Assembly (NCBI GenBank): GCA_965223265.1
Contig: OZ244999.1
Coordinates: 8,224,001 to 8,288,000, forward strand
Length of the DNA: 64,000 bases
Direction of reading: 5' to 3'
DNA from: Planctomycetota bacterium
Lineage (GTDB): Bacteria; Planctomycetota; UBA8108; SXIK01
Below the pieces are notes generated by a model that was not told the origin of the DNA, ran no database searches, and was given only the letters and a program-made list of their open reading frames with translations. Positions 16,357 to 58,301 of the stretch are shown here, in pieces (position 1 is the first letter of the stretch; every line of letters begins with the position of its first letter). A program made the position numbers and the translations under genes.

Positions 16357-19300
16357 GGCGAATCGCAGGGTGAGTGTGCGAAGCAGGAAAGGAGATCGGG
16401 TGTCGTGTCCGCGCCGCAGCCGGTGAAAGGTGCTGCAAGGTCGCCGCGGCCGGCGAACAGATGGAGAAGAATCGTGACCCCGTCCGTGACGTTGAGCTTG
16501 CCATCGTCGTTGGCGTCGGCTGATTTGACGCAGCTTGGGGCTACGGCGCGGCCAAAGATGTAGTTGAGAGCGGCAAGTGCGTCAGAGAGATCGAGCTGGC
16601 CGCTCGCGTCGACATCGCCGCGCCGAAACGGGGTTGGCTCGGCCTCGGTCTCGCGTCGGTCGAAGGATGTGACGTCGAGCGTCTTGAGCGGCTCAAGGTC
16701 GACGCCGAGATAGCGAGCGGTCGCCACACTGGTCGAAGTTGGCTCTGCAAACTCAATGGCGCGCACGAGCCCGCCGGTTCCATCCACGGCGACGGGTTCC
16801 GCGAGGACGATCCAGTAGTGCACGGCGAGGTTGTGGCGCGACGCCGAGTAGACGAGGCGCCAGTAGTCGCGGATGGTCTCTTCGTGACCGCCGGGCAGCG
16901 ACACGGTCGCGCGCTGGAGGCTCGCAGGGTTCGTGCCGAAGAAGCGGGCTTCATCATCGGAGAAGCGTTCGTTGAGCGTTAGTGTGCCGCCGTCGGCAAG
17001 AGTGACATCGATCCGCCACAGGGGCAAGAGCTGGTGGCGGCACGAGCCGTAGTTGACCAGGCGCTGTCCGTTGACGCGTGCCTTCAGCGGCTCGAGGCTC
17101 GCTTGAGTCGTGAATTCTGCATCGCTCAAGACGCGTACACCTGAAATCGGTTCTTCACCACGCGCCTCAAACTCGAGGGGTGCGAGAAGCTCGATCTCCA
17201 AGACGGTGCCATCGTCGAGGCCCCAGCGCTGCGCGAAGGTGAAGCGATACTTCGTCAGCTCGCCGTTGGGTATGCGCCGCAGACGAAAGCGCCCGCTCTC
17301 GAGCGGCGTCGCGACTTGGCGCTCAGGTCCGAAGCGGACTTCGTCAAAGAGCTCGGCGGTGAACGAGTCCCGCGTCGTTGTGAGCGGGATCGTTCCGCTG
17401 CGCAGCTTGACGTTGCTTTTCAGCTCGTATTCCTGACGCGGACCACGATTCACCCCCGCCTCTTGAAACACCCCACAGAGCTCGAAGCCCTCGGGCACCT
17501 CCAGCGTGAACTCCGGCGTTGGCGGCGGAGGCTCCGAGAGAAGGAACGGACGCACCTGCTTCACCGCCAGCTCTCCGTCGCTCATGAACTTGTACTCAAC
17601 GTCGAGCAGCACCTGAGAGCGATCGAAACGCCCCAGATCCAGAGGAAAGTTCTCATCCATGTGCCACATCAGGCGCCCAAGCTCACCCAGCTGCGCCTCA
17701 CTCACTACCACCTCTCCCTCACCCACAAGCGTCGAGCGCACCGCACGGATCACCTCCACCACTTCACCTTCAACAAGCTCCAGAACGTTCGTCTCCGCTA
17801 AGACACCCGGCTCGGGGCTCACCACACTCTCCTCTCCAAGCTGCGCCGTCACCACGTAGCGCCGATCGAGAATGTTCGACGTGTTCCCCGTAAACGCCAC
17901 TCCCTGAGACGCCTCACCTATGAACGTGCGGTTCACCAAGATCCCCATCGCCGCGATCTCTTGGTCAATCCCGAAAAACTCTCGCTCCTCGTACGCCCGG
18001 AAGTTCCACAGACTCCTCCACACCCGCTTCAGAGCGCGCGTGATCGTGCGCTCATTTGTCTCCTCGGAGTCGCACTGCGACGGGCCCTCCTCATCGCCGT
18101 CAAACTCATCGGCTAGGCACCCGCTCGTTGAGTTGTAGAGACCGGCGCCGTTGAACTGAAGGTCGTCCTCCACGTTCGAAGACGAGCGAAAGCGCACACG
18201 CGTTGTCTCACTTGTGCCCATCACCTCGCGCACTCGCGCTGCCACCAGCGCGATCACCTCCGCGCGCACAACACCCTCATCGCGCATGTGATCGCGCAGC
18301 ATGTCCAGAGCTTCGAAGCGAACGCGAGAGTCCGTCTGAAAGCTCTCATCGACTAAAAGCTCCTGCACGTACTCCTCGTACGTCACCTCTCGACTGCGGT
18401 CGAGGAAAGACTCCAGGCGGTTCTCGCGCATGAACTCCACGTAGTAGCGCATCGGGATCGCAAAACCCTTCTCCTGGTACTCGGCGTACTCCCCCGTCAG
18501 GATCTCCTGCAGACGCGAGAGGTTCGTCGCCTTCCCCCCGAAGCGAGGCACTCCCGAAAGACCACTCGACTCCAGCTCCGCGATCTCTCCCAGCGTCAAA
18601 AGCTCCGAGAACTCGCTGTCGAGCGTCGGCGCTACCTCCAGGCTTGGCCGGCTCGTGCGCCAGTGCTCCTCCGCCTCCTCCTGGCTCGCCGCGCGGATCG
18701 TGTAGCCCCCCGCTGTCACCTCTAGGCGAACCAGCTGGCCGTCCCACTCCCGAAACTCCTCCAAAGCCCCGGAGACGTACGCGTTCGGCGTTCCTCGACG
18801 CGCTGTGCGGATCGCCAGGTGACTCAGCTCCACTTGCCTCTGACCTGTCACCACGCCGCTGAAGACTCCTTCGATGTCCCGTGGGGCGATCTCTAAGACC
18901 AAGATGTTCTGAAAGCTGATCTCCCCTGTCTCACTCGCAGCGCTCAGTTCCTCTTCCGTCAGCACCCGCAGGCGCCCGAAGCCCACACCTTGGGTGTACG
19001 CCTCGAAGTCCACAGGGCCGCTGGTGGTGTCGAAGAAAATCTCAAACTCCGCGCCGCTCCACTCAGAGGCGCGATCGCGCGCCGCTGGTGTGTCTGGGAA
19101 GTACCCCAGCGGCTCCAGCGTGAACGTCTGGCGCAGCTCGGCGTACACCGCCCCCACCTCCTCCTGCCTCAGAAGCTCCGTGCTGTCAGAGCCGTCCACA
19201 ACCACCGTGAAGCCGTACGCGATCCCGCCCGACTCGCTCTCGCTCCCCGGTAGGCGAAGCCGGTTGATCACACCAGCGTAGTACTCGCGCGTGGCGCGCC

Positions 19301-21857
19301 GTGCCGTCAGCGCTGCGTAAGCCTCCGCACCGAGGCTCGGGAAGCGGTCCGGGAACACCGCTGCCAAAAACTCCTGGTGCAGCGCGAAGCGCCGAACGTT
19401 CTGGTACGTCGTCTCCAAAAGCCTCCCGTCTGCAGGACGAGCAGGCGTTATGTACTTACCGGCGCGGTCGACGATGCCGCGGGACGTCGCCGTCGTCATG
19501 TCGACGAAATCGAGTTCTGTGCACAGGGCGCTGAGAAAATCCTCTGCTGCGACGCCCGGAGCAGACTTGTTGAGAAAGATGTTCGCGTCGCTCGAGCCGC
19601 GGTTGACGACAACCACGTCAAGGCTGCCGTTGGCGTCGAGGTCGATCGGTAAGGAAAAGCGGGTACGCGAGCCACCGGTCAGCTGCGTGAGAACGATCGG
19701 AAACGTACCGTCACCCTTGCCGGGTAGAAACGACACTGTGTTGTTCGCGTCTTCCTGTCCGGCCGCGAGGACATCCAGCGTGCCATCGCCATCGATGTCG
19801 CCGACCGCAACAGAGAAAGGCGCGGTTCCGGCATCGAAGGTACCGCCATCGATGAGGACGCCGCCGCCCTGATTGAGAAGCGATGTCACGCTGCGTGACT
19901 GATTGTTCGCGACAACTACATCGAGCCAACCATTCTGATCCAGATCGGCGATTTCCACCCAGAGCGGGCTCCCGTGGAGGCTCACTGACTCCGCCGGCGC
20001 GAACGAACCGTCGCCTTGATTCCACAGCAGCGACGCATCACTGCTGGTGCGGTTGGCTGTCACGGCATCGATGTCGCCGTCACCATCGAGATCGCCGATC
20101 GCAAGGCCCCAAGGATTGGTTCCCACCGGAAACGTCTGCCGCTGGCCGAGCGTGCCGTCGCCGAAACCTGGATGCAGAACGACCACGCTATCGCCCGTGG
20201 CGATCAATAAGACGTCGACGTGGCCGTCGCCGTGGAAGTCGGCGGCGCGACTCACCCATGGGGCTTCACCAGTGCCATAGTCGACGGGCGGAGCAAAGTT
20301 GGTGCCATCGTCGAGGTTGAGGTTGACGGCGATCTTGTGCGCCGCGCGGTTGCCCACGATGATGTCTTGCCTGCCGTCTTCGTTCAGGTCTGCGCCGACG
20401 ACCGTCATAAGATGCCCACTCGTGTGGACGTGCCGGACAAGGGGCGCTCCGAGGACACCGCTGCCATCGTTACGGAGGATGGAAAACGACAGGTCCGGAC
20501 CGTTCGCCGTGGCGACGTCAAGCAGACCATCGCTGTCGATATCGACCGCTGTGACCGAATGAGCTTGACCGCCGAGTGGCGCTAGCGACGAGCTGACGCG
20601 CAATCCTCCGGGCTCACGGTTCCACAGAATGGCGACACGCGGTGGGTCGATGTTGGCGAGCGCGATGTCGTCGTCGCCGTCGCCGTCGAAATCTCCAGGT
20701 AGCGCCCAGAACACGGTGACATTGATCTCCTCGGCCGGGATGAACGACCCTCCAACGTTCACGAGTGTCGAAATGCTACGTCCGCCGCCGACGCTGACGA
20801 CGATGTCAACGTCACCGTCGCCATCGACGTCGCTCGGGGTGGTGGAGCGCGGGTTGACGTTGTGAACCAAAGGTTCAGTGAACTGGAAGTTGCCTTCATT
20901 GAAGAAAATCGACAGTGCGCGCCGTACGGTCACAAGAAGATCCGCGTCTCCGTCGTCGTCGAAGTCTGCGGTGTGGACCTCGGAGGGACCCGAGCCACCG
21001 GCGTCGATGGACCCAACCGAGACAAACGTGCCGTCGCCCTGGTTGCGTAGGATCGAAAGGTCGTTCGTGTCGCGGTTCGCGACGACGAGATCGCCGTGGC
21101 CATCGCCGTCGAGGTCTTCAGCGCGCACGGCCGTCGGTCGCTCGCCGACGAGGTGTTCGACGGCGTCGGCGAAGGTGACGCCCGCGCCGGTCTCGACGTT
21201 GGCGAGAATCACGAAGACTTTGTCGTCGACGCCGTTGGCGGCGAGCAGATCGCTGGCGCCGTCGCCACTGACGTCGCCCGCGGCGACGACGCGCGTGAAC
21301 GCTGGCACCGCGACCTCAAGAGGTGGATCCCAGGTCCGGTCGCCGCGATTGAGGAACACGAGGAGCAGGGTTGAGTTGGCGGTCGCCAAGTCGCTTCTGC
21401 CGTCGCCGTTGAAGTCGCCGGCAGCGATGCTCGTCGCGTCAGTCCCCGCGTCGAGCGGAATCGCCGCGTCGAACTCGCCGTCGCCGCGGCTCGAGTGAAC
21501 GGTGATAATCGAGGCCTTCGACGTCGGTTCCTGACTGAGGACCGCGACGTCGTCGAGGCCGTCGGCATTGAAGTCGCGGTGGACCGACCACACGGGTCGC
21601 GGCGTCGGAACGAAACCACTCTCCTTGATCGAGAACTGTGGAGGTTCGAACTCGCACTCGTCGGGAATGAGGTTGGCGTTACAGTCAGCGCTTGTGCCGT
21701 CCGCAACGTCGGTCGCGTCCTCGACACCGTTGACGTTGCAGTCGGCGGCCTTGAGCAAGCGAGGCGTCTCGATAGCGACAGTGACGAGGACACCGAAGAG
21801 AAGTATCGCAGTCCACCATCGCGAACGGCCGAAAGAGTGGTTGTCGTAGAAGTTCAT
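16353..21857 (-). CDS. Secreted FG-GAP/dikinase-like/dockerin-like protein, copy 2
   Basis: Likely start MNFYD at 21857 followed by a signal peptide ending AADCNVNG; the upstream ORF extension lies in REP DNA; same motifs as copy 1. Confidence 0.85.
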   Translation of the reverse strand: MNFYDNHSFGRSRWWTAILLFGVLVTVAIETPRLLKAADCNVNGVEDATDVADGTSADCNANLIPDECEFEPPQFSIKESGFVPTPRPVWSVHRDFNADGLDDVAVLSQEPTSKASIITVHSSRGDGEFDAAIPLDAGTDATSIAAGDFNGDGRSDLATANSTLLLVFLNRGDRTWDPPLEVAVPAFTRVVAAGDVSGDGASDLLAANGVDDKVFVILANVETGAGVTFADAVEHLVGERPTAVRAEDLDGDGHGDLVVANRDTNDLSILRNQGDGTFVSVGSIDAGGSGPSEVHTADFDDDGDADLLVTVRRALSIFFNEGNFQFTEPLVHNVNPRSTTPSDVDGDGDVDIVVSVGGGRSISTLVNVGGSFIPAEEINVTVFWALPGDFDGDGDDDIALANIDPPRVAILWNREPGGLRVSSSLAPLGGQAHSVTAVDIDSDGLLDVATANGPDLSFSILRNDGSGVLGAPLVRHVHTSGHLMTVVGADLNEDGRQDIIVGNRAAHKIAVNLNLDDGTNFAPPVDYGTGEAPWVSRAADFHGDGHVDVLLIATGDSVVVLHPGFGDGTLGQRQTFPVGTNPWGLAIGDLDGDGDIDAVTANRTSSDASLLWNQGDGSFAPAESVSLHGSPLWVEIADLDQNGWLDVVVANNQSRSVTSLLNQGGGVLIDGGTFDAGTAPFSVAVGDIDGDGTLDVLAAGQEDANNTVSFLPGKGDGTFPIVLTQLTGGSRTRFSLPIDLDANGSLDVVVVNRGSSDANIFLNKSAPGVAAEDFLSALCTELDFVDMTTATSRGIVDRAGKYITPARPADGRLLETTYQNVRRFALHQEFLAAVFPDRFPSLGAEAYAALTARRATREYYAGVINRLRLPGSESESGGIAYGFTVVVDGSDSTELLRQEEVGAVYAELRQTFTLEPLGYFPDTPAARDRASEWSGAEFEIFFDTTSGPVDFEAYTQGVGFGRLRVLTEEELSAASETGEISFQNILVLEIAPRDIEGVFSGVVTGQRQVELSHLAIRTARRGTPNAYVSGALEEFREWDGQLVRLEVTAGGYTIRAASQEEAEEHWRTSRPSLEVAPTLDSEFSELLTLGEIAELESSGLSGVPRFGGKATNLSRLQEILTGEYAEYQEKGFAIPMRYYVEFMRENRLESFLDRSREVTYEEYVQELLVDESFQTDSRVRFEALDMLRDHMRDEGVVRAEVIALVAARVREVMGTSETTRVRFRSSSNVEDDLQFNGAGLYNSTSGCLADEFDGDEEGPSQCDSEETNERTITRALKRVWRSLWNFRAYEEREFFGIDQEIAAMGILVNRTFIGEASQGVAFTGNTSNILDRRYVVTAQLGEESVVSPEPGVLAETNVLELVEGEVVEVIRAVRSTLVGEGEVVVSEAQLGELGRLMWHMDENFPLDLGRFDRSQVLLDVEYKFMSDGELAVKQVRPFLLSEPPPPTPEFTLEVPEGFELCGVFQEAGVNRGPRQEYELKSNVKLRSGTIPLTTTRDSFTAELFDEVRFGPERQVATPLESGRFRLRRIPNGELTKYRFTFAQRWGLDDGTVLEIELLAPLEFEARGEEPISGVRVLSDAEFTTQASLEPLKARVNGQRLVNYGSCRHQLLPLWRIDVTLADGGTLTLNERFSDDEARFFGTNPASLQRATVSLPGGHEETIRDYWRLVYSASRHNLAVHYWIVLAEPVAVDGTGGLVRAIEFAEPTSTSVATARYLGVDLEPLKTLDVTSFDRRETEAEPTPFRRGDVDASGQLDLSDALAALNYIFGRAVAPSCVKSADANDDGKLNVTDGVTILLHLFAGRGDLAAPFTGCGADTTPDLLSCFAHSPCDSP
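17455..19466 (-). repeat. ~2.0-kb near-identical core, copy in gene 2 (inverted relative to the others)
   Basis: Reverse complement matches 43970-45981 from RAGKYITP to CGVFQEAG; identical shadow ORFs appear in the ORF track. Confidence 0.95.
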
Positions 21858-21888
21858 GGCAGCTCGAGTTGAACGGTTCGATGCAGCA

Positions 21889-22410
21889 AGATAGCAGGCA
21901 CGGTCCGAGGCTAGGAATTCTTTAACGTGCCGTCGTAACTCACGGTCACGTCGGGACGGCATACAGCAGTGGGCGACTACTTTGAAGATCGAGTTGGTGA
22001 CGGTACGTGCCCATAGTAGCAGGCACACGCCGTGTGCCGTAGCGCTCTTTCGTTAGTACGATCGCTCCCATTGAGGGTCTATCTCACGCTCCTTGCGAGC
22101 CTCGCGTGAATCTTTTTTCTTGGCGCCAAGAGCGCAAGGTCGCAACGGAAGTGGAGACGTGTTTGAGCGCCTGACGCTTCTCTGCCAGGTCTTCGTTGAC
22201 TTCGTTTGCTTCGTTTGCTGCCGGTGAAGAGATGAGAAGAAGAACTGAACAAAAGGAAACGAAGTCAACGAAGGGCGGCCGCGCAAAGTAGCAGGCACAC
22301 GCCGTGTGCCGTCCGGAGGTGATGGTACGAAGGCATGTTTTAAATCTTCACAGCCTCGCCGCGTGCCGTCGCTCAGTCTCCCGTTACGGTATACAGAAGT
22401 TTGCCTACTA
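21889..22410. repeat. Cluster of GTAG-type REP-like palindromic elements
   Basis: (AA)AGTAGCAGGCACACGCCGTGTGCCGT at 22015 and 22285, degenerate inverted partners ending CTACTTT/CTACTA; related to 58303-58500. Confidence 0.75.
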
Positions 22411-22425
22411 CGTTCCGGACAGGTC

Positions 22426-25248: not shown

Positions 25249-25403
25249 CCCCCAAACTGTGGTTCGACGGAGAGGCCTATCCGTCAGACTCCGTCCAACA
25301 ACGAACAAGGTGCGACCTGCGGCAGTTCCGTTCAATCTTACGGACGGGGCCCGTAGAGCGAAGCGGCTTCTTGCCGCCAGTGACGGTTCAACGGGCTGCT
25401 AAC

Positions 25404-25453
25404 AAAACGGCCAGCGCTCCATCGGCTCGAGAGCCTGGGAACGCTGGCCGTTT
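25404..25453 (-). terminator. Rho-independent terminator downstream of the LamG/dockerin gene
   Basis: Stem AAACGGCCAGCG...CGCTGGCCGTTT with inner GGCTC/GAGCC; followed by TTTTGTT on the minus strand. Confidence 0.7.
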
Positions 25454-25512
25454 CCAAACGGTTCGCTACGATCGTGCGGAGTTCCGCCGAACGCAGCTAA
25501 CCCATCGCTACG

Positions 25513-27822: not shown

Positions 27823-28020
27823 AGGACCCTCCCTAAAAACCTACGGCGAACAACAACCTTTCCACGGTTGTTGACAATCGTTCCCTGTGTCGTGCTTAGT
27901 GCCCGTTTTCCCGCGCGCAAGACGGATTGGAGAGTTCGTTTGCGATCGGAAAAAGGACCCAAACCCTTCGCACTCCGTTCGCGAATATGAGAAACCAACC
28001 AGGGACCCGTGTCAACCGTC

Positions 28021-28156
28021 AACTGTATACAAACCCTTCGAACGCCCTTCCCGCGTCGTGCGGAGTGGGTCGGGGTTTGTGAACTCTTTGCGTCTGCGCG
28101 CGCGGAAAAGGGAATCTGCTCGCGACAAATTGCGTCTTCTGTATACTAAGTACAAT
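28021..28156. promoter_or_regulatory. Candidate GntR(FCD)-type operators CTGTATACAA (28023) and CTGTATACTAAGTACAA (28139) in a divergent promoter region
   Basis: AT-rich TGTATACA palindromes in GC-rich DNA upstream of the GntR gene. Confidence 0.45.
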
Positions 28157-28210
28157 TCCCGCGAATCGATGAAAGCGCGGGTTTTTTCAATCGACCTTAG
28201 GCTGCGTATC

Positions 28211-28939: not shown

Positions 28940-28979
28940 TCAAATCTGCCCGGCCAGATTTCGCATTGGGTGGAAGTCG

Positions 28980-41478: not shown

Positions 41479-41510
41479 CACGGGCTACAGTGTCTGTACA
41501 CTGTATACAG
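41475..41510 (+). promoter_or_regulatory. Sigma70-like promoter TTGACA-16-TACACT overlapped by palindromes TACAGTGT-n4-ACACTGTA and CTGTATACAG
   Basis: TTGACA 41475-41480, TACACT 41497-41502, CTGTATACAG 41501-41510, about 90 bp upstream of the copy 3 start. Confidence 0.55.
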
Positions 41511-41596
41511 TTTGTCTCGGGGGGAGGTTTGCTCATGGGCGGTTGCTACGGCGCCTGACGCCGGGTCTGAGGTGGACGGCAGCGGAAAGCGCTCCC

Positions 41597-47083: not shown

Positions 47084-47226
47084 AACGAGATCAAGGCGCC
47101 GCCACTCCAGCGGTTGCCGCGAACAAATCGTAGAAACACCATGGTTGTTACTTTGCACCGCGAAGCGGTGAGAATCTCGCGACAGTGATTCCTCACGGCG
47201 GAGCGTGAACGGGGAAGGGTGCTCGG

Positions 47227-50200: not shown

Positions 50201-52779
50201 GTGAGACAGGGGAGATCAGCTTTCAGAACATCTTGGTCTTAGAGATCGCCCCACGGGACATCGAAGGAGTCTTCAGCGGCGTGGTGACAGGTCAGAGGCA
50301 AGTGGAGCTGAGTCACCTGGCGATCCGCACAGCGCGTCGAGGAACGCCGAACGCGTACGTCTCCGGGGCTTTGGAGGAGTTTCGGGAGTGGGACGGCCAG
50401 CTGGTTCGCCTAGAGGTGACAGCGGGGGGCTACACGATCCGCGCGGCGAGCCAGGAGGAGGCGGAGGAGCACTGGCGCACGAGCCGGCCAAGCCTGGAGG
50501 TAGCGCCGACGCTCGACAGCGAGTTCTCGGAGCTTTTGACGCTGGGAGAGATCGCGGAGCTGGAGTCGAGTGGTCTTTCGGGAGTGCCTCGCTTCGGGGG
50601 GAAGGCGACGAACCTCTCGCGTCTGCAGGAGATCCTGACGGGGGAGTACGCCGAGTACCAGGAGAAGGGTTTTGCGATCCCGATGCGCTACTACGTGGAG
50701 TTCATGCGCGAGAACCGCCTGGAGTCTTTCCTCGACCGCAGTCGAGAGGTGACGTACGAGGAGTACGTGCAGGAGCTTTTAGTGGATGAGAGCTTTCAGA
50801 CGGACTCTCGCGTTCGCTTCGAAGCTCTGGACATGCTGCGCGATCACATGCGCGATGAGGGTGTTGTGCGCGCGGAGGTGATCGCGCTGGTGGCAGCGCG
50901 AGTGCGCGAGGTGATGGGCACAAGTGAGACAACGCGTGTGCGCTTTCGCTCGTCTTCGAACGTGGAGGACGACCTTCAGTTCAACGGCGCCGGTCTCTAC
51001 AACTCAACGAGCGGGTGCCTAGCCGATGAGTTTGACGGCGATGAGGAGGGCCCGTCGCAGTGCGACTCCGAGGAGACAAATGAGCGCACGATCACGCGCG
51101 CTCTGAAGCGGGTGTGGAGGAGTCTGTGGAACTTCCGGGCGTACGAGGAGCGAGAGTTTTTCGGGATTGACCAAGAGATCGCGGCGATGGGGATCTTGGT
51201 GAACCGCACGTTCATAGGTGAGGCGTCTCAGGGAGTGGCGTTTACGGGGAACACGTCGAACATTCTCGATCGGCGCTACGTGGTGACGGCGCAGCTGGGT
51301 GAGGAGAGCGTGGTGAGCCCCGAGCCGGGTGTCTTAGCGGAGACGAACGTGCTGGAGCTTGTTGAAGGTGAAGTGGTGGAGGTGATCCGTGCGGTGCGCT
51401 CGACGCTTGTGGGTGAGGGAGAGGTGGTAGTGAGTGAGGCGCAGCTGGGTGAGCTTGGGCGCCTGATGTGGCACATGGATGAGAACTTTCCTCTGGATCT
51501 GGGGCGTTTCGATCGCTCTCAGGTGCTGCTCGACGTTGAGTACAAGTTCATGAGCGACGGAGAGCTGGCGGTGAAGCAGGTGCGTCCGTTCCTTCTCTCG
51601 GAGCCTCCGCCGCCAACGCCGGAGTTCACGCTGGAGGTGCCCGAGGGCTTCGAGCTCTGTGGGGTGTTTCAAGAGGCGGGAGCGGGCCGTGGACTGCGCG
51701 ATGAGTATGATCTCAAGAGCGTGGTGGAGTTCTCTGGGGGAGAGCACGTTCTTCGCAGTGACCGCGAGGTGTTCACCGGTGAGCTTTTCAGCGGTGTGTT
51801 CCTGGGCCCATCGCAAGAGCCAGGAGTGGCTGTAGGGAAGGGAACGTACCGCCTGACGCGGTTTTCAGAAGCCGGCGCAGTGACGGCGTATCGTTACACG
51901 TACTCGCAGCGCTATGCACTTTCTGAGAGCGGTGAGGAGTACGAGGTGTCGGTGGTGACGCCGTTTGAGTTCCGGGCTCGCGGCGAGGAGACTCTGGGGG
52001 GCGGTCGTTTGGTGCTCTCTGACATTGAGTTCAAGAGTCGTCCGAGCCAGGAGCGGGTGAGCGGGCGGATCGGCGGAGCGCCGCGCGTGCGCTACGCATC
52101 TTGTGACTTCAGTGACTTACCGCTGTGGGAGGTGATCGCGGTTGGCGAGGACGGGACTCGTATTGAGGCGCTCGAGCGCTTCGATGAGGAGGCGAGCACG
52201 TTCGAGACGTCTCGAGCGTCCTTAGAGCGAGCGCGAGTGGAGATCGGCGGTGTGGTGCAGGATCTGAGGTCGTACACGCAGCTGGTGTACTCTGCGTCTC
52301 GTCACAACACTGCAGTGGGTTACTGGCTGGTGCTGAACGAGTCGGTGGAGCTTGAGGGGGTGAGCGGCGGTAGAGTTCGGGTCGTGGAGTACGCTCAGGG
52401 AGAGGGCGGCGAGTCGGGATCTCTGCGTTACCTGGGAGAGGACCTGAGCGAGCTTGGCCGAGCGAGCGTGAGCTCAGAGCGCCGTGAGGAGCGCGGCGAG
52501 GAGGAGCGAGAGTTTCGCCGCGGCGATGTGAATGCCGACGGATTGGTGGATCTTGCCGACGCTTTGGGAGTTTTGAACTACTTGTTTCGCCGCGCGGCGG
52601 AGCCGAGCTGCGTGCGTGCGGCGGACGCCGACGACAACGGCCGCGTGAACGTCTCGGACGCCGTGGTGATCCTGCTGCACCTCTTTGCCGGCGGCGGCCC
52701 CCTGCCTGAGCCCACCGCCTGTGGTCTCGACACCACCGGCGACTCGCTCTCCTGCTACGACGCGGCGGCGTGTCGCTGA
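47227..52779 (+). CDS. Secreted FG-GAP/dikinase-like/dockerin-like protein, copy 4
   Basis: Signal ending ALAADCNLNG; unique FG-GAP region; core and tail nearly identical to copy 3; start may be 47239. Confidence 0.87.
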   Translation: MSVRMRRRRFSCYVPDIALGIPCLVHACIVALLIAIGTAAALAADCNLNGVEDAEEVASGVAQDCNADEIPDACQFAPTEFGFGSDRLPLISSPRGVAAADFNGDGWDDLAIGSQDAARVSTLTVFLSRGDGSFETGIEHAATDDLTGTAVGEFNGDSAIDIVSVSSVAVDIFLNDGNGAFTRAPVPLEVPKFTRTIGTADVLRGGGNDLIVANSVDGTVGVLPGNGDGTFGALVDIRVGDRPSALALADIDADGWDDIVSANTSSRNISIVASSAGDALAAPIVLDAAGLRPLAVATADFDGDGHVDLAASGQQGTRIWLQRASGAGELGTFDFDEAIVFSAGAATLLSADFDTDGDADLVGVEVGLGALQVWIDAGTGGFGATRLATPGVRQFAAGDFDGNGAEDFCLTTADPDGANVLLSGLGSATIDMEQTRVVFDRLPHDVQVVDLNRDGNLDVVSANGHSDSISLAFGQGDGSFSPIVHHHLGNWGHANSIDVGDFDRDGDMDIVTADFEGRDTIPGVVAEVTQIAVIYNRGDGLPERTVTYPTGRESWMVRTQDLDGDGRLDLFTANRAAETATLYFGLEDGTFGRREDIPAGDTPAAVFAADLDADGDADLLAANSVSARVSILVNRGVGNFDPPHTIEVALGPNFVSAADVNSDGRVDVLTTHEPSRSVGVLLGRGGLEYDPPLSFPLRSAPFSLTAVDLSGDGFLDLIVPHGGETTVLLGRGDGTFPVFFQYVVGAQPRFSAAGDLNSDGAMDFVVGNRFTRDISVFLQRRNATELTAAFLDGICTAADFHALSLPARTSSLVERAGKYITPARPEDGALLETTYQNVRRFALHQEFLAAVFPDRFPSLGAEAYAALTARRATRDYYVGVINRLRLAASESEAGGIAYGFTVVVDGSDSAELLTQEEVEAVYAELRKTFTLEPLGYFPDTPAARDRASEWSGAEFEIFFDTTSGPVDFEAYTQGVGFGRLRVLTEEELSAASETGEISFQNILVLEIAPRDIEGVFSGVVTGQRQVELSHLAIRTARRGTPNAYVSGALEEFREWDGQLVRLEVTAGGYTIRAASQEEAEEHWRTSRPSLEVAPTLDSEFSELLTLGEIAELESSGLSGVPRFGGKATNLSRLQEILTGEYAEYQEKGFAIPMRYYVEFMRENRLESFLDRSREVTYEEYVQELLVDESFQTDSRVRFEALDMLRDHMRDEGVVRAEVIALVAARVREVMGTSETTRVRFRSSSNVEDDLQFNGAGLYNSTSGCLADEFDGDEEGPSQCDSEETNERTITRALKRVWRSLWNFRAYEEREFFGIDQEIAAMGILVNRTFIGEASQGVAFTGNTSNILDRRYVVTAQLGEESVVSPEPGVLAETNVLELVEGEVVEVIRAVRSTLVGEGEVVVSEAQLGELGRLMWHMDENFPLDLGRFDRSQVLLDVEYKFMSDGELAVKQVRPFLLSEPPPPTPEFTLEVPEGFELCGVFQEAGAGRGLRDEYDLKSVVEFSGGEHVLRSDREVFTGELFSGVFLGPSQEPGVAVGKGTYRLTRFSEAGAVTAYRYTYSQRYALSESGEEYEVSVVTPFEFRARGEETLGGGRLVLSDIEFKSRPSQERVSGRIGGAPRVRYASCDFSDLPLWEVIAVGEDGTRIEALERFDEEASTFETSRASLERARVEIGGVVQDLRSYTQLVYSASRHNTAVGYWLVLNESVELEGVSGGRVRVVEYAQGEGGESGSLRYLGEDLSELGRASVSSERREERGEEEREFRRGDVNADGLVDLADALGVLNYLFRRAAEPSCVRAADADDNGRVNVSDAVVILLHLFAGGGPLPEPTACGLDTTGDSLSCYDAAACR
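49630..52755 (+). repeat. Second copy of the 3.1-kb direct repeat
   Basis: Matches 43931-47056 with scattered SNP patches. Confidence 0.95.
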
Positions 52780-52856
52780 TGTCCGCTGCGCGTCGTACAA
52801 ACGAAGCCGTAAAATGAAGCCTTGGGGCTGCCGAGTCAGAAGATAGAGGAACTCAA

Positions 52857-55800
52857 ATGAACAATCGACGGATCCTCAGCGCTTTGCTCGCCGCCTGCGC
52901 TTTCTGTTTCTCGCTTTCCGCGACGGCGGCCGATTGCAACCGCAATGGCGTCGAGGATGCCGCCGACCTCACCGCCGGAACGAGCCAGGACTGTAACGCC
53001 AACCAGATTCCCGACGAGTGCGAACAAGCGCCGCTCGCGTTCGGTCTCGTCGAAGGTGATTACTCAGTGAGTGAGGGACCCGTCGCGGCGGTGAGCGGGG
53101 ATTTCGACGGGGATGGCCTGCTGGACATCGCGACCGGTAGCAAGGACAGCACCAACGTCTCGACGCTGACGGTGCTCCTTAGCCAGGGCGACAAAACGTT
53201 CGTGCACGCCGGGAACTTCGCAGCGGGTGAGCGGCTCGCGTCACTGGCGGCGGTCGATTGGGATGGAGACGGCGACGTCGATCTCGTCAGCGCAAATTCA
53301 TCCCTCGTGTCGACGTTCGCCAACAACGGCGACGGCACCTTTGGCGCGCCGCAGCAATACCCGGCACAGTCGAGCACGTCAGCCGCCACCGCCGCCGACA
53401 TCTCAGGCGATGGTCTTCCCGAGCTTCTCGCCGCCAGCGCGCTGCGCAGTAACGTCGGTGTCTACCCCAACCTGGGCGATGGCACCTTCGGTGAAGCCAC
53501 CCTCGTTCCAGTCGGCCGTCGACCGATCGCGATTTTCGCGGTTGATTTGAATGGTGACGGCGCGGTCGATGTGACGACGCTCAACCGCAACGACGCCAAT
53601 CTCTCGATTCTCGTCAACGACGGCGCCGGAGGGTTGATCGCGAACGACCCCGTCGCTTTCGAAGGATTGCCGACAGCCTACACAGTCGCCGACCTGAGCG
53701 GCGATGGCTTTCCCGACCTCGTCGCGGCCAATCGTGAACGTTTCAGCGTTTGGATCAACAACGGCGACGCCACGTTCGGTGTGCCGGCGACCCACGACGT
53801 TCCGACACACTCGCTCGCTGCGGGCGATCTTGACGGTGACGGCGATGTCGATGTGGCTGTCGGCTCGTTCGCGCAGTCGCACGTCCTTCTCTTCGACAAC
53901 GACGGCAAGGGGGTGCTGGAAGAGCGCGCCACCATCGTCACCGAATTCGACGCTCTTCTCTCAGAGCATCTCAGCGATCTTGACGGCGACGGCGCTGTCG
54001 ATCTGACGACGGTGCGTGAGCTTTTCTCTCGCGTTGACATTTTTTGGAACGGTGTTCCCGGCGCTTCCGCTGTGAGCCTTGATCCCGTCACCGTCGTGAT
54101 TGACCGCGAGCCCCACCACGTTAACTTGTTGGATGTTGATGGCGACGGCCACCTCGATGTCGTCTCGGGCAACGGTGACAACCGTTCGATCTCCGTCATG
54201 GTGAACCAAGGTGACGGTACGTTCGCGAGCGGGCGCGAGTTTCCCGTCGATGAGCCGAAGGATTTTATTCGGCTCGACTCGATCGACGGCGGTGATTTTG
54301 ACAACGACGGCGACGTTGACGTCCTCAGCGCCGATGCGTGGGGCGACGTGTTGCGGATTCACTTCAACGACGGTGACGGCAACTTCCCGACGTGGGACCT
54401 TTACGACGCTGGCCTGGGAACGGTGCGCGCCGAGACGGCTGATTTCGACAGCGACGGCGAGCTCGATCTCATGAGCGTCAACACTGAAGGCAACACGGTT
54501 ACCATCTACACCGGCGTTGGTGATGGCACGTTCAAGGATCGTCGCGACCTGCCGGTCGGCGTTGGTCCGTTCGCTCTCACCACGGTTGATCTCGACGGCG
54601 ATGGCCACGTCGACGCAGCCATCGCCAACCGGACGTCGTCGGACCTCTCGCTCCTCTACGGTAACGGCGACGGCACTTTCGCCGACGTTGTCAGTCTTGC
54701 GGTGAGCGGTGAGGCGCGCTCGGCGGTCGCCGCGGACCTCGACGACGACGGTATCCTCGACCTACTCACGGCCCATCGTTCGCGTGCTTCCATCTTCCGC
54801 GGCCTTGGTGGTCGCAGCTACGCACCCGCGCAGATCATCGTGTTCGAGCGGGACGTGCACACGGCGATCGCAACGGATGTCGACGTCGACGGCGTCTTGG
54901 ATATCGTGACCGCCAACGAGACGACGGACAGCATGTCAGTTCTTCTCGGTTTGGGAGGTGCGGAGTACCTGCCTCCGTTTCATCTCTTTGCCGGCGACGG
55001 ATTGCGATTTCTCCTCACCGACGATATCGATGCCGATGGCGACCTCGACGTGATCACCGGCAATCGTGTCGGCCGCGATCTCACTGTCTTTCGTAATCGA
55101 TTCGATACGCTCGTCGGCAGCGAAGATTTTTTGACATCCGTTTGCACTGCGCGCGACTTTCATCTCTACACTGTTCCCACCAACACGAGCAGTTTAGTGG
55201 AGCGTGCGGGCAAGTACATAACGCCTGCGCGGCCAGAAGACGGTGCGCTTTTGGAGACGACGTATCAGAACGTTCGTCGCTTCGCGCTGCACCAGGAGTT
55301 TTTGGCAGCGGTGTTCCCGGACCGCTTCCCGAGCCTCGGTGCGGAGGCTTACGCAGCGCTGACGGCACGGCGCGCCACGCGCGAGTACTACGCTGGTGTG
55401 ATCAACCGGCTTCGCCTACCGGGGAGCGAGAGCGAGTCGGGCGGGATCGCGTACGGCTTCACGGTGGTTGTGGACGGCTCTGACAGCACGGAGCTTCTGA
55501 GGCAGGAGGAGGTGGGGGCGGTGTACGCCGAGCTGCGCAAGACGTTCACGCTGGAGCCGCTGGGGTACTTCCCAGACACACCAGCGGCGCGCGATCGCGC
55601 CTCTGAGTGGAGCGGCGCGGAGTTTGAGATTTTCTTCGACACCACCAGCGGCCCTGTGGACTTCGAGGCGTACACCCAAGGTGTGGGCTTCGGGCGCCTG
55701 CGGGTGCTGACGGAAGAGGAACTGAGCGCTGCGAGTGAGACAGGGGAGATCAGCTTTCAGAACATCTTGGTCTTAGAGATCGCCCCACGGGACATCGAAG

Positions 55801-58301
55801 GAGTCTTCAGCGGCGTGGTGACAGGTCAGAGGCAAGTGGAGCTGAGTCACCTGGCGATCCGCACAGCGCGTCGAGGAACGCCGAACGCGTACGTCTCCGG
55901 GGCTTTGGAGGAGTTTCGGGAGTGGGACGGCCAGCTGGTTCGCCTAGAGGTGACAGCGGGGGGCTACACGATCCGCGCGGCGAGCCAGGAGGAGGCGGAG
56001 GAGCACTGGCGCACGAGCCGGCCAAGCCTGGAGGTAGCGCCGACGCTCGACAGCGAGTTCTCGGAGCTTTTGACGCTGGGAGAGATCGCGGAGCTGGAGT
56101 CGAGTGGTCTTTCGGGAGTGCCGCGCTTCGGGGGGAAGGCGACAAACCTCTCACGCCTGCAGGAGATTCTGACGGGGGAGTACGCCGAGTACCAGGAGAA
56201 GGGTTTTGCGATCCCGATGCGCTACTACGTGGAGTTCATGCGCGAGAACCGCCTGGAGTCTTTCCTCGACCGCAGTCGAGAGGTGACGTACGAGGAGTAC
56301 GTGCAGGAGCTTTTAGTGGATGAGAGCTTTCAGACGGACTCTCGCGTTCGCTTCGAAGCTCTGGACATGCTGCGCGATCACATGCGCGATGAGGGTGTTG
56401 TGCGCGCGGAGGTGATCGCGCTGGTGGCAGCGCGAGTGCGCGAGGTGATGGGCACAAGTGAGACAACGCGTGTGCGCTTTCGCTCGTCTTCGAACGTGGA
56501 GGACGACCTTCAGTTCAACGGCGCCGGTCTCTACAACTCAACGAGCGGGTGCCTAGCCGATGAGTTTGACGGCGATGAGGAGGGCCCGTCGCAGTGCGAC
56601 TCCGAGGAGACAAATGAGCGCACGATCACGCGCGCTCTGAAGCGGGTGTGGAGGAGTCTGTGGAACTTCCGGGCGTACGAGGAGCGAGAGTTTTTCGGGA
56701 TCGACCAAGAGATCGCGGCGATGGGGATCTTGGTGAACCGCACGTTCATAGGTGAGGCTTCTCAGGGAGTGGCGTTTACGGGGAACACGTCGAACATTCT
56801 CGATCGGCGCTACGTGGTGACGGCGCAGCTGGGTGAGGAGAGCGTGGTGAGCCCCGAGCCGGGTGTCTTAGCGGAGACGAACGTGCTGGAGCTTGTGGAA
56901 GGTGAAGTGGTGGAGGTGATCCGTGCGGTGCGCTCGACGCTAGTGGGTGAGGGTGAGGTGGTTCTCAGTGAGGGGCAGCTGGGTGAGCTTGGGCGCCTGA
57001 TGTGGCACATGGATGAGAACTTTCCTCTGGATCTGGGGCGTTTCGATCGCTCTCAGGTGCTGCTCGACGTTGAGTACAAGTTCATGAGCGACGGAGAGCT
57101 GGCGGTGAAGCAGGTGCGTCCGTTCCTTCTCTCGGAGCCTCCGCCGCCAACGCCGGAGTTCACGCTGGAGGTGCCCGAGGGCTTCGAGCTCTGTGGGGTG
57201 TTTCAAGAGGCGGGAGCACGGCGCGGACCGCTGGAGGAATATGAGCTCAAGAGCCGCATTCGTTTCGTCGGCGGTCCCATCGCGCTGCGGACGGATCGAG
57301 AGATCTTCGCCGCCGATTTGATCGACGAGCTGAGATTCGGTCCGAGTCAAGAGCTCGCCACGGCCGACGGCGCAGGAACGTTTCGCGTCAACCGGGTCGC
57401 CGGCCCAGGTGACGTGACGATCTATCGATTCACGTTCTTGCAGTCGTTCCGCCTCGCCGATGACCGACCGTTCGAACTCCGACTCCTCACGCCGCTTGAG
57501 TTCCGTGCGCGCGGCGACGAGCCGGTTGAAGCATCCTTGTTGTTCACGAATGAATTCTTCACGCAGCGACCGAATACCGAGGCATTTCAAGCGCGACTCG
57601 ACGGCAACTTCCTCGTCCACTACGGCGCCTGCAACTACGACCACCTGGACCTCCACCGAACGCGCGTCGAGCTCGAGGACGGCAGTACGCTGCGACTCGA
57701 CGAGCGCTTTCTCGAAGCCGACAGCGAGGTCGAAACCGGGCCGGCGGCTCTCATCGACGCAGTCGTCGTGATCGGCGGCACGCGTCAGCGCGTTACCGAC
57801 TATTGGCGCCTTGTCTACTCCGCTTTTCGCCACAACCAGGGCGTGCGCTATTGGGTGGTGCTCGATCCGCCGCTGAGCATTGAAAGCTTGGCACCGATTC
57901 ACGCCGTCGAGCTCAGAGCTGCGGAAGATAACCAGCCGGCGAGCGCCGCGTATCTCGGCGCCAGCTTAGAGGTGCTACGTGAAATTGGGGTGAGTGCGTT
58001 CGAGCGCACGCGCATCACGGAAGCGTCCGAGTTTGTTCGCGGCGACGCCAACAGCGACGGTCTCGTCGATGCCGCCGACGTGATTTTCATCCTGAACTAC
58101 ATCTTCCGCGACGGCGACCCGATCACCTGTCAAAGTGCGGCAGACGCGGACGACAATGGTCGACTCAACGTCTCGGACGCGATCGGTATCCTGCTGCGCC
58201 TCTTCGCCGGAGCGCCGCCGCTCCCCGCGCCATCCGACGCCTGTGGCGAGGATCCGACCGTCGACACGCTGAGCTGCGCATCCGCTCCAGCGTGCTTGTA
58301 G
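52857..58301 (+). CDS. Secreted FG-GAP/dikinase-like/dockerin-like protein, copy 5
   Basis: GAGGA RBS, Sec signal MNNRRILSALLAACAFCFSLSATA|ADCNRNG; shared core; unique C-terminal domain; FVRGDANSDG dockerin-like tag. Confidence 0.9.
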   Translation: MNNRRILSALLAACAFCFSLSATAADCNRNGVEDAADLTAGTSQDCNANQIPDECEQAPLAFGLVEGDYSVSEGPVAAVSGDFDGDGLLDIATGSKDSTNVSTLTVLLSQGDKTFVHAGNFAAGERLASLAAVDWDGDGDVDLVSANSSLVSTFANNGDGTFGAPQQYPAQSSTSAATAADISGDGLPELLAASALRSNVGVYPNLGDGTFGEATLVPVGRRPIAIFAVDLNGDGAVDVTTLNRNDANLSILVNDGAGGLIANDPVAFEGLPTAYTVADLSGDGFPDLVAANRERFSVWINNGDATFGVPATHDVPTHSLAAGDLDGDGDVDVAVGSFAQSHVLLFDNDGKGVLEERATIVTEFDALLSEHLSDLDGDGAVDLTTVRELFSRVDIFWNGVPGASAVSLDPVTVVIDREPHHVNLLDVDGDGHLDVVSGNGDNRSISVMVNQGDGTFASGREFPVDEPKDFIRLDSIDGGDFDNDGDVDVLSADAWGDVLRIHFNDGDGNFPTWDLYDAGLGTVRAETADFDSDGELDLMSVNTEGNTVTIYTGVGDGTFKDRRDLPVGVGPFALTTVDLDGDGHVDAAIANRTSSDLSLLYGNGDGTFADVVSLAVSGEARSAVAADLDDDGILDLLTAHRSRASIFRGLGGRSYAPAQIIVFERDVHTAIATDVDVDGVLDIVTANETTDSMSVLLGLGGAEYLPPFHLFAGDGLRFLLTDDIDADGDLDVITGNRVGRDLTVFRNRFDTLVGSEDFLTSVCTARDFHLYTVPTNTSSLVERAGKYITPARPEDGALLETTYQNVRRFALHQEFLAAVFPDRFPSLGAEAYAALTARRATREYYAGVINRLRLPGSESESGGIAYGFTVVVDGSDSTELLRQEEVGAVYAELRKTFTLEPLGYFPDTPAARDRASEWSGAEFEIFFDTTSGPVDFEAYTQGVGFGRLRVLTEEELSAASETGEISFQNILVLEIAPRDIEGVFSGVVTGQRQVELSHLAIRTARRGTPNAYVSGALEEFREWDGQLVRLEVTAGGYTIRAASQEEAEEHWRTSRPSLEVAPTLDSEFSELLTLGEIAELESSGLSGVPRFGGKATNLSRLQEILTGEYAEYQEKGFAIPMRYYVEFMRENRLESFLDRSREVTYEEYVQELLVDESFQTDSRVRFEALDMLRDHMRDEGVVRAEVIALVAARVREVMGTSETTRVRFRSSSNVEDDLQFNGAGLYNSTSGCLADEFDGDEEGPSQCDSEETNERTITRALKRVWRSLWNFRAYEEREFFGIDQEIAAMGILVNRTFIGEASQGVAFTGNTSNILDRRYVVTAQLGEESVVSPEPGVLAETNVLELVEGEVVEVIRAVRSTLVGEGEVVLSEGQLGELGRLMWHMDENFPLDLGRFDRSQVLLDVEYKFMSDGELAVKQVRPFLLSEPPPPTPEFTLEVPEGFELCGVFQEAGARRGPLEEYELKSRIRFVGGPIALRTDREIFAADLIDELRFGPSQELATADGAGTFRVNRVAGPGDVTIYRFTFLQSFRLADDRPFELRLLTPLEFRARGDEPVEASLLFTNEFFTQRPNTEAFQARLDGNFLVHYGACNYDHLDLHRTRVELEDGSTLRLDERFLEADSEVETGPAALIDAVVVIGGTRQRVTDYWRLVYSAFRHNQGVRYWVVLDPPLSIESLAPIHAVELRAAEDNQPASAAYLGASLEVLREIGVSAFERTRITEASEFVRGDANSDGLVDAADVIFILNYIFRDGDPITCQSAADADDNGRLNVSDAIGILLRLFAGAPPLPAPSDACGEDPTVDTLSCASAPACL
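55188..57217 (+). repeat. ~2.0-kb near-identical core in copy 5
   Basis: Offset 11233 bp from the copy 3 core; SSLVERAGKY to CGVFQEAGA. Confidence 0.95.

Follow-up and report, generated by a model that had tools for sequence, protein, structure and literature searches.

The locus analysed here raises the question of how neighbouring genes come to share an almost identical stretch of DNA in their middle and to differ strongly at both ends. The window, a stretch of 64,000 nucleotides from a planctomycete genome, carries five paralogous genes, c1 to c5 (Table 1). For these, a preliminary description had proposed that one catalytic cassette is held constant while recognition modules diversify, as in polymorphic toxins or receptor repertoires. 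The genes c1 and c2 overlap by 4 nt, whereas 143 nt separate c3 from c4 and 77 nt separate c4 from c5. c2 is oriented opposite to c3-c5 and stands head-to-head with them; its likely start precedes a signal-like segment and a DCN motif.

Table 1. Coordinates of the five paralogs and their parts within the window.
Feature	Position	Strand	Details
c1	10828..16356	-	fifth paralog, 1842 aa; architecture as c2-c5
c2	16353..22028	-	longest ORF 1891 aa; Met at 21857 is the likely start
c2-specific C-terminal domain and dockerin-like end	16356..17454	-	
c2 copy of the shared core	17455..19466	-	core nt 7-2018; k-mer contigs break at both ends
c2-specific signal segment and tandem FG-GAP propellers	19467..21857	-	
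c3	41375..47083	+	longest ORF 1902 aa; likely start 41597
c3 tract common to c4	43931..47056	+	core and whole C-terminal domain
c3 copy of the shared core	43970..45981	+	swivel-His segment ~44429-44749; ATP-grasp ~44843-45913
c4	47227..52779	+	1850 aa; likely start 47239
c4 tract common to c3	49630..52755	+	core and C-terminus; core proper 49669-51680
c5	52857..58301	+	1814 aa
c5 copy of the shared core	55188..57217	+	identity to c3/c4 spans -9 to core nt 2021
c5-specific C-terminal domain and weak dockerin	57218..58298	+	dockerin 22.2 bits, Pfam cut-off 22.9

A near-identical core between divergent ends

The genes c2-c5 have a tract of about 2,012 nt in common that is ~97-98.5% identical and free of indels (in c5, strictly 55203-57214). 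By blastn of the five genes, identity amounted to 98.5% for c2/c3, 97.7% for c2/c5, 97.2% for c2/c4, 97.8% for c3/c5 and 96.9% for c4/c5, the alignments of these pairs being 2,058-2,118 nt long, ungapped and in frame. The pair c3/c4 was 98.1% identical across 3,152 nt; its tract starts 33 nt upstream of core nt 1 and stops about 25 nt short of the stop codon, and the final 1,404 nt are 100% identical. These tract coordinates agree within a few bases with those given in the preliminary description, and both breakpoints named there, the onset of identity at RAGKYITP and its end at CGVFQEAG, were reproduced. In c1, the core is 63% identical in nucleotides and 57% in amino acids to the shared core and thus not homogenised.

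Outside the core, the N-terminal propellers and C-terminal domains of c2-c5 showed about 50% DNA identity, the C-terminus of c3/c4 excepted. At the protein level, 33-36% identity was found for the N-terminal and 39-46% for the C-terminal parts (c3/c4: 100%), in line with the strongly differing propellers and the four C-terminal variants (c1, c2, c3 = c4 and c5) that had been described. Along codon-aligned 50-codon windows, a sliding comparison proposed earlier, identity was 38-69% ahead of the core, 90-100% within it and 43-71% behind it, with sharp jumps at both edges. Across 508 paralog pairs of the genome, core identity (K) followed N-terminal identity (N) as K = 0.80*N + 29.1 (sd 3.9), which predicts about 57% core identity for pairs among c2-c5; 98-99% was observed.

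Analysis of substitution rates by domain, likewise proposed earlier, gave a core dS of only 0.024-0.086 with a dN/dS of 0.07-0.14 among c2-c5, as opposed to saturated dS values of 1.6-2.8 for the N-termini and 1.2-2.1 for the C-termini. When the shared core was compared with F30 and F06, the closest copies in the genome that are unconverted, dS was about 1.9. As the synonymous sites of the core are nearly identical, purifying selection on the protein alone cannot be the cause, and the constancy of the core is due to recent copying of DNA, not to conservation. Thus, the proposal of a constant cassette amid diversifying modules holds for a constant module between differing ends; it is not supported for the diversification, since the age of the ends equals that of the entire family of 35 members to which these genes belong (see below), with saturated dS and an N-terminal identity of 33-36%.

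The preliminary description had considered that the identical cores might result from assembly, and the genome is indeed a single-contig assembly of metagenome type, in which polishing of repeats can blur SNPs. That the assembly merged or homogenised cores which truly are more divergent is, however, highly improbable and largely refuted by Logan k-mer contigs from four public runs, which stem from one study and possibly from the source sample. These contigs branch exactly at the boundaries of the core (17455-17484 and 19437-19466, the core edges of c2) and carry it in a single collapsed form: the depth of the core contigs was 11.6, 12.8, 27.7 and 10.4 compared to 3.2-9.7 in flanking contigs (~2-3.6x). 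Variant letters within the core contigs matched variants of other assembled copies only, and the assembled copies themselves differ at 83 of 2,058 sites in a structured pattern. As k-mer contigs do not span the 2-kb repeat, the pairing of N- and C-terminal parts in c2-c5 is given as assembled. The contig comparison also returned many joints of 20-27 nt, which were cross-matches of FG-GAP repeats and were left unused. Short-read assemblies will collapse or break at genes of this family.

A family of 35 copies with a dikinase-like core

A search of the genome for further cores, as suggested before, identified 35 family copies, making up about 2% of the 9.2 Mb. Members start with a signal peptide and a dockerin-like DCN motif, which are followed by a pair of FG-GAP beta-propellers, the dikinase-like core (~670 aa), a ~260-aa domain that matches no known family and a dockerin; within the core, a phosphohistidine swivel domain is predicted to precede an ATP-grasp domain of the PPDK type. 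The same pattern of homogenisation occurred in two other clusters. F09 and F10 are 37% identical in the N-terminal part, 99% in the core and 100% in the C-terminal part, and the corresponding values for F17, F18 and F20 are 39-42%, 99-100% and 95-98%; in both clusters every copy lies in direct orientation. Core identity reached at least 98% in 10 of the 508 pairs, all 10 within 31 kb, and never exceeded 77% in pairs more than 60 kb apart. Proximity alone is nevertheless insufficient for conversion, because the adjoining c1 is unconverted, and so is F19, whose core is just 77% identical despite its place within the cluster.

Outside this genome, no orthologs of c2-c5 were detected across 30 related genomes and 79 loci from other genomes, the best core among the 30 genomes being about 55% identical. 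A long core match was present in 75 of the 79 loci; a single one of these 75 (L033/L115) held two copies within 10 kb, and this pair was not homogenised. A literature search combining Planctomycetes, FG-GAP and dikinase found nothing, and among the matches listed for gene conversion in Planctomycetes none concerns this family, of which no member has been studied so far.

The core matched PF01326 (PPDK_N) in Pfam with E=1e-14 and 55 bits (cut-off 27 bits), and the motifs GGKA, RxRSSSNxED and E..K..Q.RP are invariant in the 35 sequences. The same applies to His218 of the core within 'ELSH', located in a swivel-domain-like segment upstream of the ATP-grasp region. A weak phmmer stretch aligned this segment with the swivel region of PEP synthase, and a match to GWD1_pHisD (E=0.11, 12.5 bits) stayed far under the 27-bit Pfam threshold. 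Using a structure model, Foldseek returned rifampin phosphotransferase 5hv1 as best match (E=2e-16), the ATP-binding domain of 5hv6 with a TMt of 0.73-0.74 and, further, PEP synthase 2ols and PPDK 1dik; the core is thus predicted to fold like these three enzymes. For the C-terminal domain, Pfam gave only the dockerin and the ESM Atlas no usable match, and the search with the whole model yielded a weak AttH-like match (2ich, probability 0.51).

In GWD, a swivel domain carrying the histidine lies ahead of the nucleotide-binding domain. The core resembles GWD and PWD in that it has a PPDK_N-type nucleotide-binding domain and, ahead of it, a candidate swivel segment with His218. In contrast to these enzymes, CBM45 and CBM20 are absent and tandem FG-GAP propellers occupy their place; no CBM was found by Pfam in the proteins of the five genes, which gave FG-GAP repeats and dockerin. 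A further difference lies in the signal peptide and the dockerin, which imply export. Outside the cell, ATP is not expected.

Origin and boundaries of the shared tract

The distribution of differences within the core allowed us to compare copying that was repeated with copying that happened once. Along core nt 7-2018 of c2-c5, 63 sites are variable, and the site pattern switches only 13 times compared to a mean of 47.3 after shuffling (so few in 0 of 100,000 shuffles). The sites support two 2+2 partitions that are incompatible with each other, c2c3|c4c5 (17 sites) and c2c4|c3c5 (5 sites), and these are clustered in blocks (an equally low value in 81 of 100,000 shuffles). One 564-nt stretch shows no difference among the four copies (0 of 20,000 with uniform placement), and identity falls into layers of about 85, 89, 92, 97 and 100%, one example being core nt 123-320 of c4, an older-layer patch 89% identical to the other copies. 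A genome-wide search revealed no better donor for the divergent patches (84-97% identical), which indicates that the patches date from earlier rounds of the same copying process.

In the core tree, c2-c5 formed a clade with an SH-aLRT of 100, tips of at most 0.01 and a stem of 0.40. In the N-terminal tree, c5 paired with F03 (99), c3 with F04 (97) and c2 with c1 (91), so that c3 and c5 are, by their N-termini, closer to copies in other parts of the genome than to the rest of c2-c5; constraining c2-c5 together cost 40.8 lnL units (AU p=0.013). For the C-terminal tree, a single clade of c2-c5 was not rejected (AU p=0.09).

The 5' ends of the tracts are staggered over about 40 nt, at -33 (c3/c4), -9 (c5) and +7 (c2) nt, and those of the other clusters fall within the same ~25 aa. 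At the 3' side, the ends of c2 and c5 coincide within 3 nt, which is tighter than expected of independent events, and in the other clusters the distance from tract end to stop codon is at most about 10 nt. According to the structure model, the 5' breaks are situated after the last propeller strand (ending at residue 747) and before the first core strand, where residues 750-757 and 773-809 have pLDDT values below 50, and the 3' break lies at core residues 672-675 in a segment of pLDDT < 50; the breakpoints are therefore located in predicted flexible linkers between domains. A 5' boundary limited by homology was considered and rejected: baseline DNA similarity was ~52-55% both before and after the break without a clear step, and did not rise to 67% until the window that begins with core residue 27. 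Unconverted cores of the subfamily share about 60% DNA identity (first third ~55%, propellers ~47%), and the longest exact runs common to unconverted copies, 17-26 nt, are alike in propeller and core. In the absence of a homology step at this boundary, a domain-linker or selection filter is favoured.

We consider it likely, with a probability of roughly 0.8, that the cores of c2-c5 are homogenised by repeated ectopic gene conversion, i.e., segmental concerted evolution. c1-c5 would represent old members of the 35-copy planctomycete family of predicted exported proteins, and the core DNA of c2-c5 would have been overwritten repeatedly between copies within about 31 kb, the inverted c2 included, with the conversion in c3/c4 probably extending over the C-terminal domain. 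An initial 'seeding' replacement may have been followed by homologous recombination among near-identical cores; the mosaic of variant sites argues for such continued homogenisation after seeding. Tracts would halt where the sequences become too different, and boundaries may appear in linkers because only swaps of whole folding units would yield working proteins. The outcome would be a single enzyme engine common to four genes that differ in their ancient propellers and carry C-terminal domains of three kinds. A point against this reading is the low identity of unconverted cores, about 60%, which does not readily account for the first replacements.

Low homology between unconverted cores would rather fit single paste events, in which each gene received the core (in c3/c4 together with the C-terminus) in a single insertion, through illegitimate recombination, microhomology-mediated recombination or an offset segmental duplication, followed by plain divergence; the nearly common 3' end of c2 and c5 and the tract ends ~10 nt from the stop codon in the other clusters also speak for this. 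However, under such a history the differences should be spread evenly and agree with a single tree, and blocks with incompatible partitions were observed instead, together with the identity layers of ~85-100% and a difference-free 564-nt stretch directly adjoining an 11%-divergent patch, which makes single pasting improbable. Slightly more credit, though still little, can be given to a role of the 2-kb core as a hinge at which crossovers reassort propellers and C-terminal domains among c2-c5, the near-identical core perhaps also being kept for that use. As the inverted c2 shares 2 kb at 97-98.5% with the head-to-head c3-c5, an exchange between c2 and c3, c4 or c5 would flip the intervening 19-31 kb and swap the ends. 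The nearest relatives of c3 differ by part (N-terminal F04 (97), C-terminal F03 (87/96)), and imposing the pairing of the other part was rejected in three of four AU tests (p=0.02, 0.035 and 0.017; fourth 0.19), whose groups were chosen after the trees had been seen. This N/C incongruence is, however, ancient (branches ~0.8-1.0), the k-mer contigs, which cannot span the core, held no alternative junction, no recombinase occurred among the ORFs of at least 150 aa scanned between c2 and c3, the copies of the other two clusters are all in direct orientation, and conversion alone accounts for the data. If the hinge did operate, four propeller 'heads' and three 'tails' would provide a combinatorial repertoire of predicted exported dikinase-like enzymes at the population level, with variation in the enzyme repertoire from cell to cell, and the discordant N/C histories would be a fossil trace of exchanges.

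The layout of constant and variable parts superficially resembles a polymorphic-toxin-like or site-specific cassette system, and either of these, like purifying selection alone, is extremely unlikely. The analogy to polymorphic toxins drawn in the preliminary description fails because what varies is not a toxin tip at the C-terminus, the C-terminal parts matched no Pfam toxin family (E up to 1), and the gaps of 77-143 nt between c3, c4 and c5 are too short for immunity genes. Against a cassette system stand the staggered 5' ends and the lack of recombinases among the ORFs scanned: no integrase or invertase family was found in the six large proteins and 16 flanking or intervening ORFs (at least 150 aa), a scan that covered nearly all of 22-41 kb. 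Selection alone is countered by the identity of the synonymous sites. In a loose sense, a repertoire of receptors or enzymes would be plausible.

Comparison with known systems

Polymorphic toxins such as Rhs, CDI and MafB consist of a constant N-terminus and a short variable C-terminal toxin followed by an immunity gene. The present proteins are likewise large, multi-copy and predicted to be exported, with a constant part and swappable parts; unlike in those systems, the ends vary around a constant middle, the genes abut and no toxin domain was found. In hsdS loci, inverted gene copies with conserved central repeats can swap two variable recognition halves, and the inverted copies described here share a conserved central repeat as well. 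They differ in that neither a recombinase among the ORFs scanned nor fixed short crossover sites were found, and no alternative arrangement was observed in k-mer contigs, which cannot span the core. Shufflons of type I restriction hsdS and domain movement in specificity subunits are treated in an excerpt of PMC3077401.

The bab genes of Helicobacter pylori are comparable in that near-identical segments are kept by intragenomic homologous recombination while the ligand-binding part differs, and in that chimeras arise at segment borders. Work by Pride and Blaser from 2002 is cited in PMC4552749. In contrast to babA/babB/babC, the homogenised part here is an enzyme module of 2 kb within the gene, with a boundary at each end, four genes take part, of which one is inverted, the pattern is found in three clusters of a 35-copy family, and the host is an uncultured planctomycete in which no phase-variation repeats were seen. 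Conversion in babA/babB/babC is described, in an excerpt of PMC4552749, for the 5' region and a homologous 3' region of ~1200-2100 bp; for prokaryotes in general, concerted evolution has been surveyed (PMC6053082, excerpt).

The process is well known and the family uncharacterised, making this a new case, probably one of domain-precise concerted evolution at a scale unusual for a bacterium (2-3-kb tracts, four genes, three clusters). Trees of the family based on the core misrepresent gene history. The propeller and the C-terminal domain are the parts that bear the individuality of each copy and the dikinase-like core is the interchangeable one, a usable hypothesis toward the function of these predicted exported enzymes.

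GC3 was 0.78 in the converted cores, copies that are not independent of one another, and about 0.71 for the family; F15, an unconverted copy, had a GC3 of 0.86. There is a hint of GC-biased conversion at the cores.

Gene layout and the shared core

The source is a single-contig genome of 9.18 Mb with ~62% G+C, and the window (G000:C1:8224001-8288000, G000:C1 being this genome) contains five large paralogous genes, c1 to c5. Pfam assigns to each gene 10-11 FG-GAP_3 stretches across the first ~800 residues, a PPDK_N (ATP-grasp) domain (E 2e-10 to 5e-14) and a C-terminal dockerin, which in c5 is slightly below the threshold. All five also have a signal-like hydrophobic segment immediately N-terminal of a conserved 'DCN..G..D' motif.

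Large genes, strict core tracts and homogenised clusters (window positions unless prefixed by G000:C1)
Feature	Position	Strand	Description
c1	10828-16356	-	large paralogous gene
c2	16353-22028	-	large paralogous gene
c3	41375-47083	+	large paralogous gene
c4	47227-52779	+	large paralogous gene
c5	52857-58301	+	large paralogous gene
DUF6797/LamG gene	31410-37007	+	sixth large gene, not related to c1-c5 (Pfam)
c2 tract	17455-19466		strict core tract
c3 tract	43970-45981		strict core tract
c4 tract	49669-51680		strict core tract
c5 tract	55203-57214		strict core tract
F09/F10 cluster	G000:C1:2309095-2320562		unlike propellers; core + C-terminus near-identical
F17-F20 cluster	G000:C1:4619814-4642312		unlike propellers; core + C-terminus near-identical

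The strict tracts agree with the near-identical core that the preliminary description had placed in c2-c5. By blastn, these copies have 2,058 nt in common at 96.9-98.5% identity, ungapped, with the likeness of c3 and c4 extending to 3,152 nt; to these copies, the c1 core has ~63% identity. The sharp breakpoints described earlier appear in 50-codon windows as an abrupt jump at both core edges, from 38-69% identity to 90-100% in the core and then down again. Protein identity is 33-36% among the N-termini of c2-c5 and 39-46% among the C-termini, except for c3/c4 (100%), as expected from the C-terminal variants claimed, with c3 and c4 alike.

Across 35 aligned family members, the invariant core residues are His218 in 'ELSH', GGKA at 312-315, R427, R429, SSSN at 430-433 followed by E435 and D436, and E626, K628, Q639, R641 and P642. 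Searches of the PDB by phmmer gave PEP synthase matches, all weak, one stretch of which covers the swivel domain. Foldseek matched rifampin phosphotransferase (5hv1, 2e-16) and its ATP-binding domain 5hv6 (TMt 0.73-0.74), and also PEP synthase and PPDK. In plant glucan, water dikinases the His domain precedes the ATP domain, an order that the core, with its putative His domain, would share; its Pfam GWD1_pHisD match is sub-threshold.

Origin of the identical cores

Four public runs contain the stretch, all from one study and maybe from the source sample, and are therefore not fully independent. Unique k-mer contigs of the c2 C-terminus and N-terminus end at 17455-17484 and 19437-19466, and between them lies a single core contig with a depth of 11.6, 12.8, 27.7 and 10.4 in the four runs versus 3.2-9.7 in the flanks. 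Alternative letters occur in it only at core nt 343 and 1122, plus 927-972 in run X4, and all are variants assigned by the assembly to other copies. Depth, breaks at both boundaries and matching variants thus demonstrate that the core in the reads is truly near-identical multi-copy sequence, and an assembly artefact was rejected. The k-mer contigs carry no information on the pairing of N- and C-terminus across the core.

Protein-level selection as the cause is excluded by the core dS among c2-c5 of 0.024-0.086 (dN/dS 0.07-0.14), compared to propeller values of 1.6-2.8 and C-terminal values of 1.2-2.1; against the nearest unconverted relatives, dS of the shared core is ~1.9. Recent whole-gene duplication is likewise excluded by the trees. 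In the N-terminal tree of the 33 long copies, c5 groups with F03 at 1.23 Mb (SH-aLRT 99), c3 with F04 at 1.83 Mb (97), both being other family copies, and c2 with c1 (91); a tree constrained to keep c2-c5 as one group is worse by 40.8 log-likelihood units (AU p=0.013). In the core tree, c2-c5 form a clade with support 100, tips of <=0.01 and a stem of 0.40, with F06 as sister. Within core nt 7-2018, 63 variable sites group into 14 runs of uniform pattern, with 13 switches versus 47.3 expected (0 of 100,000 shuffles as low), and blocks back the incompatible partitions c2c3|c4c5 (17 sites) and c2c4|c3c5 (5 sites). A c4-private patch at core nt 123-320 holds 23 sites (89% identity), and 564 core nt show no difference among all four copies. 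As the divergent patches find their best match in the three sister cores and nothing better elsewhere in the genome, they represent older layers, not imports. Together, these patterns are the signature of gene conversion acting repeatedly between c2, c3, c4 and c5.

The earlier reading of a constant catalytic cassette with different recognition ends holds as an outcome; the ends, however, are ancient rather than diversifying, and the mechanism is ordinary conversion. The proposed likeness to polymorphic toxin systems was not borne out: their characteristic features are missing. The ORFs scanned in the interval between c2 and the oppositely oriented c3-c5 include no recombinase. Segmental conversion between bacterial paralogs is described, among other cases, for the bab genes of H. 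pylori (PMC4552749) and in a prokaryote-wide survey (PMC6053082). Our literature search found no paper on this FG-GAP/dikinase-like family. The near-identical cores are real and striking and are explained by a known process, well documented in bacterial paralogs, acting on an unstudied protein family.

GC3 is 0.78 in the c2-c5 cores and 0.75-0.81 in the converted C-termini of F09/F10 and F17/F18/F20, the family usually having ~0.71; this could reflect GC-biased conversion, with the copies being non-independent and F15 a counter-example.

Tract boundaries and possible reassortment of modules

The 5' tract ends are staggered (-33 nt in c3/c4, -9 in c5, +7 in c2), and in other clusters they fall inside the same ~25 residues, bounded by a conserved 'CT..DF' helix on one side and 'GKY..PAR' on the other. 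At the 3' side, the c3/c4 tract stops 25 nt upstream of the stop codon, those of c2 and c5 have ends no more than 3 nt apart, and those of the F09/F10 and F17-F20 clusters, starting at the same junction, end ~10 nt or less short of the stop codon. Residues 1-840 of c5, modelled with AlphaFold (mean pLDDT 83.6), have tandem-propeller proteins as best fold matches; the model is all-beta at 62-747, followed by linker segments of low confidence (750-757 and 773-809). In the model of c3 core and C-terminus (mean pLDDT 85.4), the 3' break coincides exactly with a stretch of pLDDT below 50 (672-675), an indel-prone loop throughout the family. Among unconverted relatives, no clear step in baseline DNA similarity was found at the 5' boundary (propellers ~47%, first third of the core ~55%, whole core ~60%), and the longest exact runs are 17-26 nt in propellers and core alike. 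From breaks at linker or loop and the missing step we infer that the boundaries mark the junctions at which a chimera still folds and functions. Boundaries established in this way would then stay fixed, because later homologous exchange would stop at unlike flanks. The conversion account covers neither the first replacements at ~60% identity nor the 3-nt coincidence of the c2 and c5 ends.

Since c2 is inverted relative to c3-c5, a crossover between their cores would invert 19-31 kb and swap the ends; that core crossovers reassort ends in this way appears improbable. The nearest relatives of c3 differ by part (N-terminus with F04, C-terminus with F03, core with F06), and three of four AU tests imposing the other part's pairing reject it, these tests being post hoc and the events ancient. 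In the subfamily of F01, F03, F04, F06 and F30-F34, nearest relatives differ among N-terminal, core and C-terminal parts, which points to ancient reassortment of modules within the family.

The family in the genome and neighbouring genes

A search of the rest of the genome for further cores had been suggested, and tblastn identified 35 full-length cores in the genome plus one fragment, including two more homogenised clusters. All but two are long forms of ~1,800 aa (33/35); the two short forms lack propellers. At ~5.5 kb each, the 35 copies make up roughly 2% of the genome. Core identity follows N-terminal identity over 508 pairs (K = 0.80N + 29.1, sd 3.9), with ten outliers at 98-100% core identity, all within 31 kb: six among c2-c5, F09/F10 at 2.31 Mb and three among F17/F18/F20 at 4.62 Mb. 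Pairs >60 kb apart never exceed 77%. Proximity alone is insufficient, because c1, F19 and F21 are close by yet not homogenised. Core and C-terminus are 95-100% identical within the two other clusters, F19 excepted; this copy, in the middle of F17-F20, has a core just 77% identical and may be older or escaped. A 437-aa open frame at G000:C1:8070887-8071306 (-) contains only the first ~150 core residues (44-46% identity), suggesting that this sub-domain is able to stand alone.

Of the 30 related genomes searched, 26 contain relatives, at 1-10 matches per genome; the 35-copy family is a lineage-specific expansion. Homologs, from Planctomycetes MAGs, are annotated solely as 'VCBS repeat-containing' or hypothetical, and labels of more distant loci include Omnitrophota, Verrucomicrobiales and Myxococcales MAGs. 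One locus in another genome (G028:C241:1-7488, L035) carries two tandem short-form relatives of ~1,025 aa, ~100% identical in DNA save one 60-codon window near the N-terminus (73%), the inverse of c2-c5 in that a variable patch lies inside otherwise identical copies.

In the window, the DUF6797/LamG/SGL-like protein (1,865 aa) contains an internal 284-nt direct repeat (32679-32962 and 35805-36088, 77% identity). The gene immediately upstream of c2 and in the same orientation (22426-25335, -) encodes a CotH-kinase protein that carries lamin-tail and Fn3-associated domains and is putatively another exported ATP-using enzyme. A single 933-aa ORF (58573-61374, -) joins an enolase-superfamily (MR_MLE) and a sulfatase part and may be a true fusion or, with an upstream TTG taken as the start, two genes appearing as one. 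At 434-3011 (-), a DUF790 protein adjoins and overlaps an XPB/ERCC3-like helicase with a damage-recognition domain, which looks like a helicase-nuclease pair.
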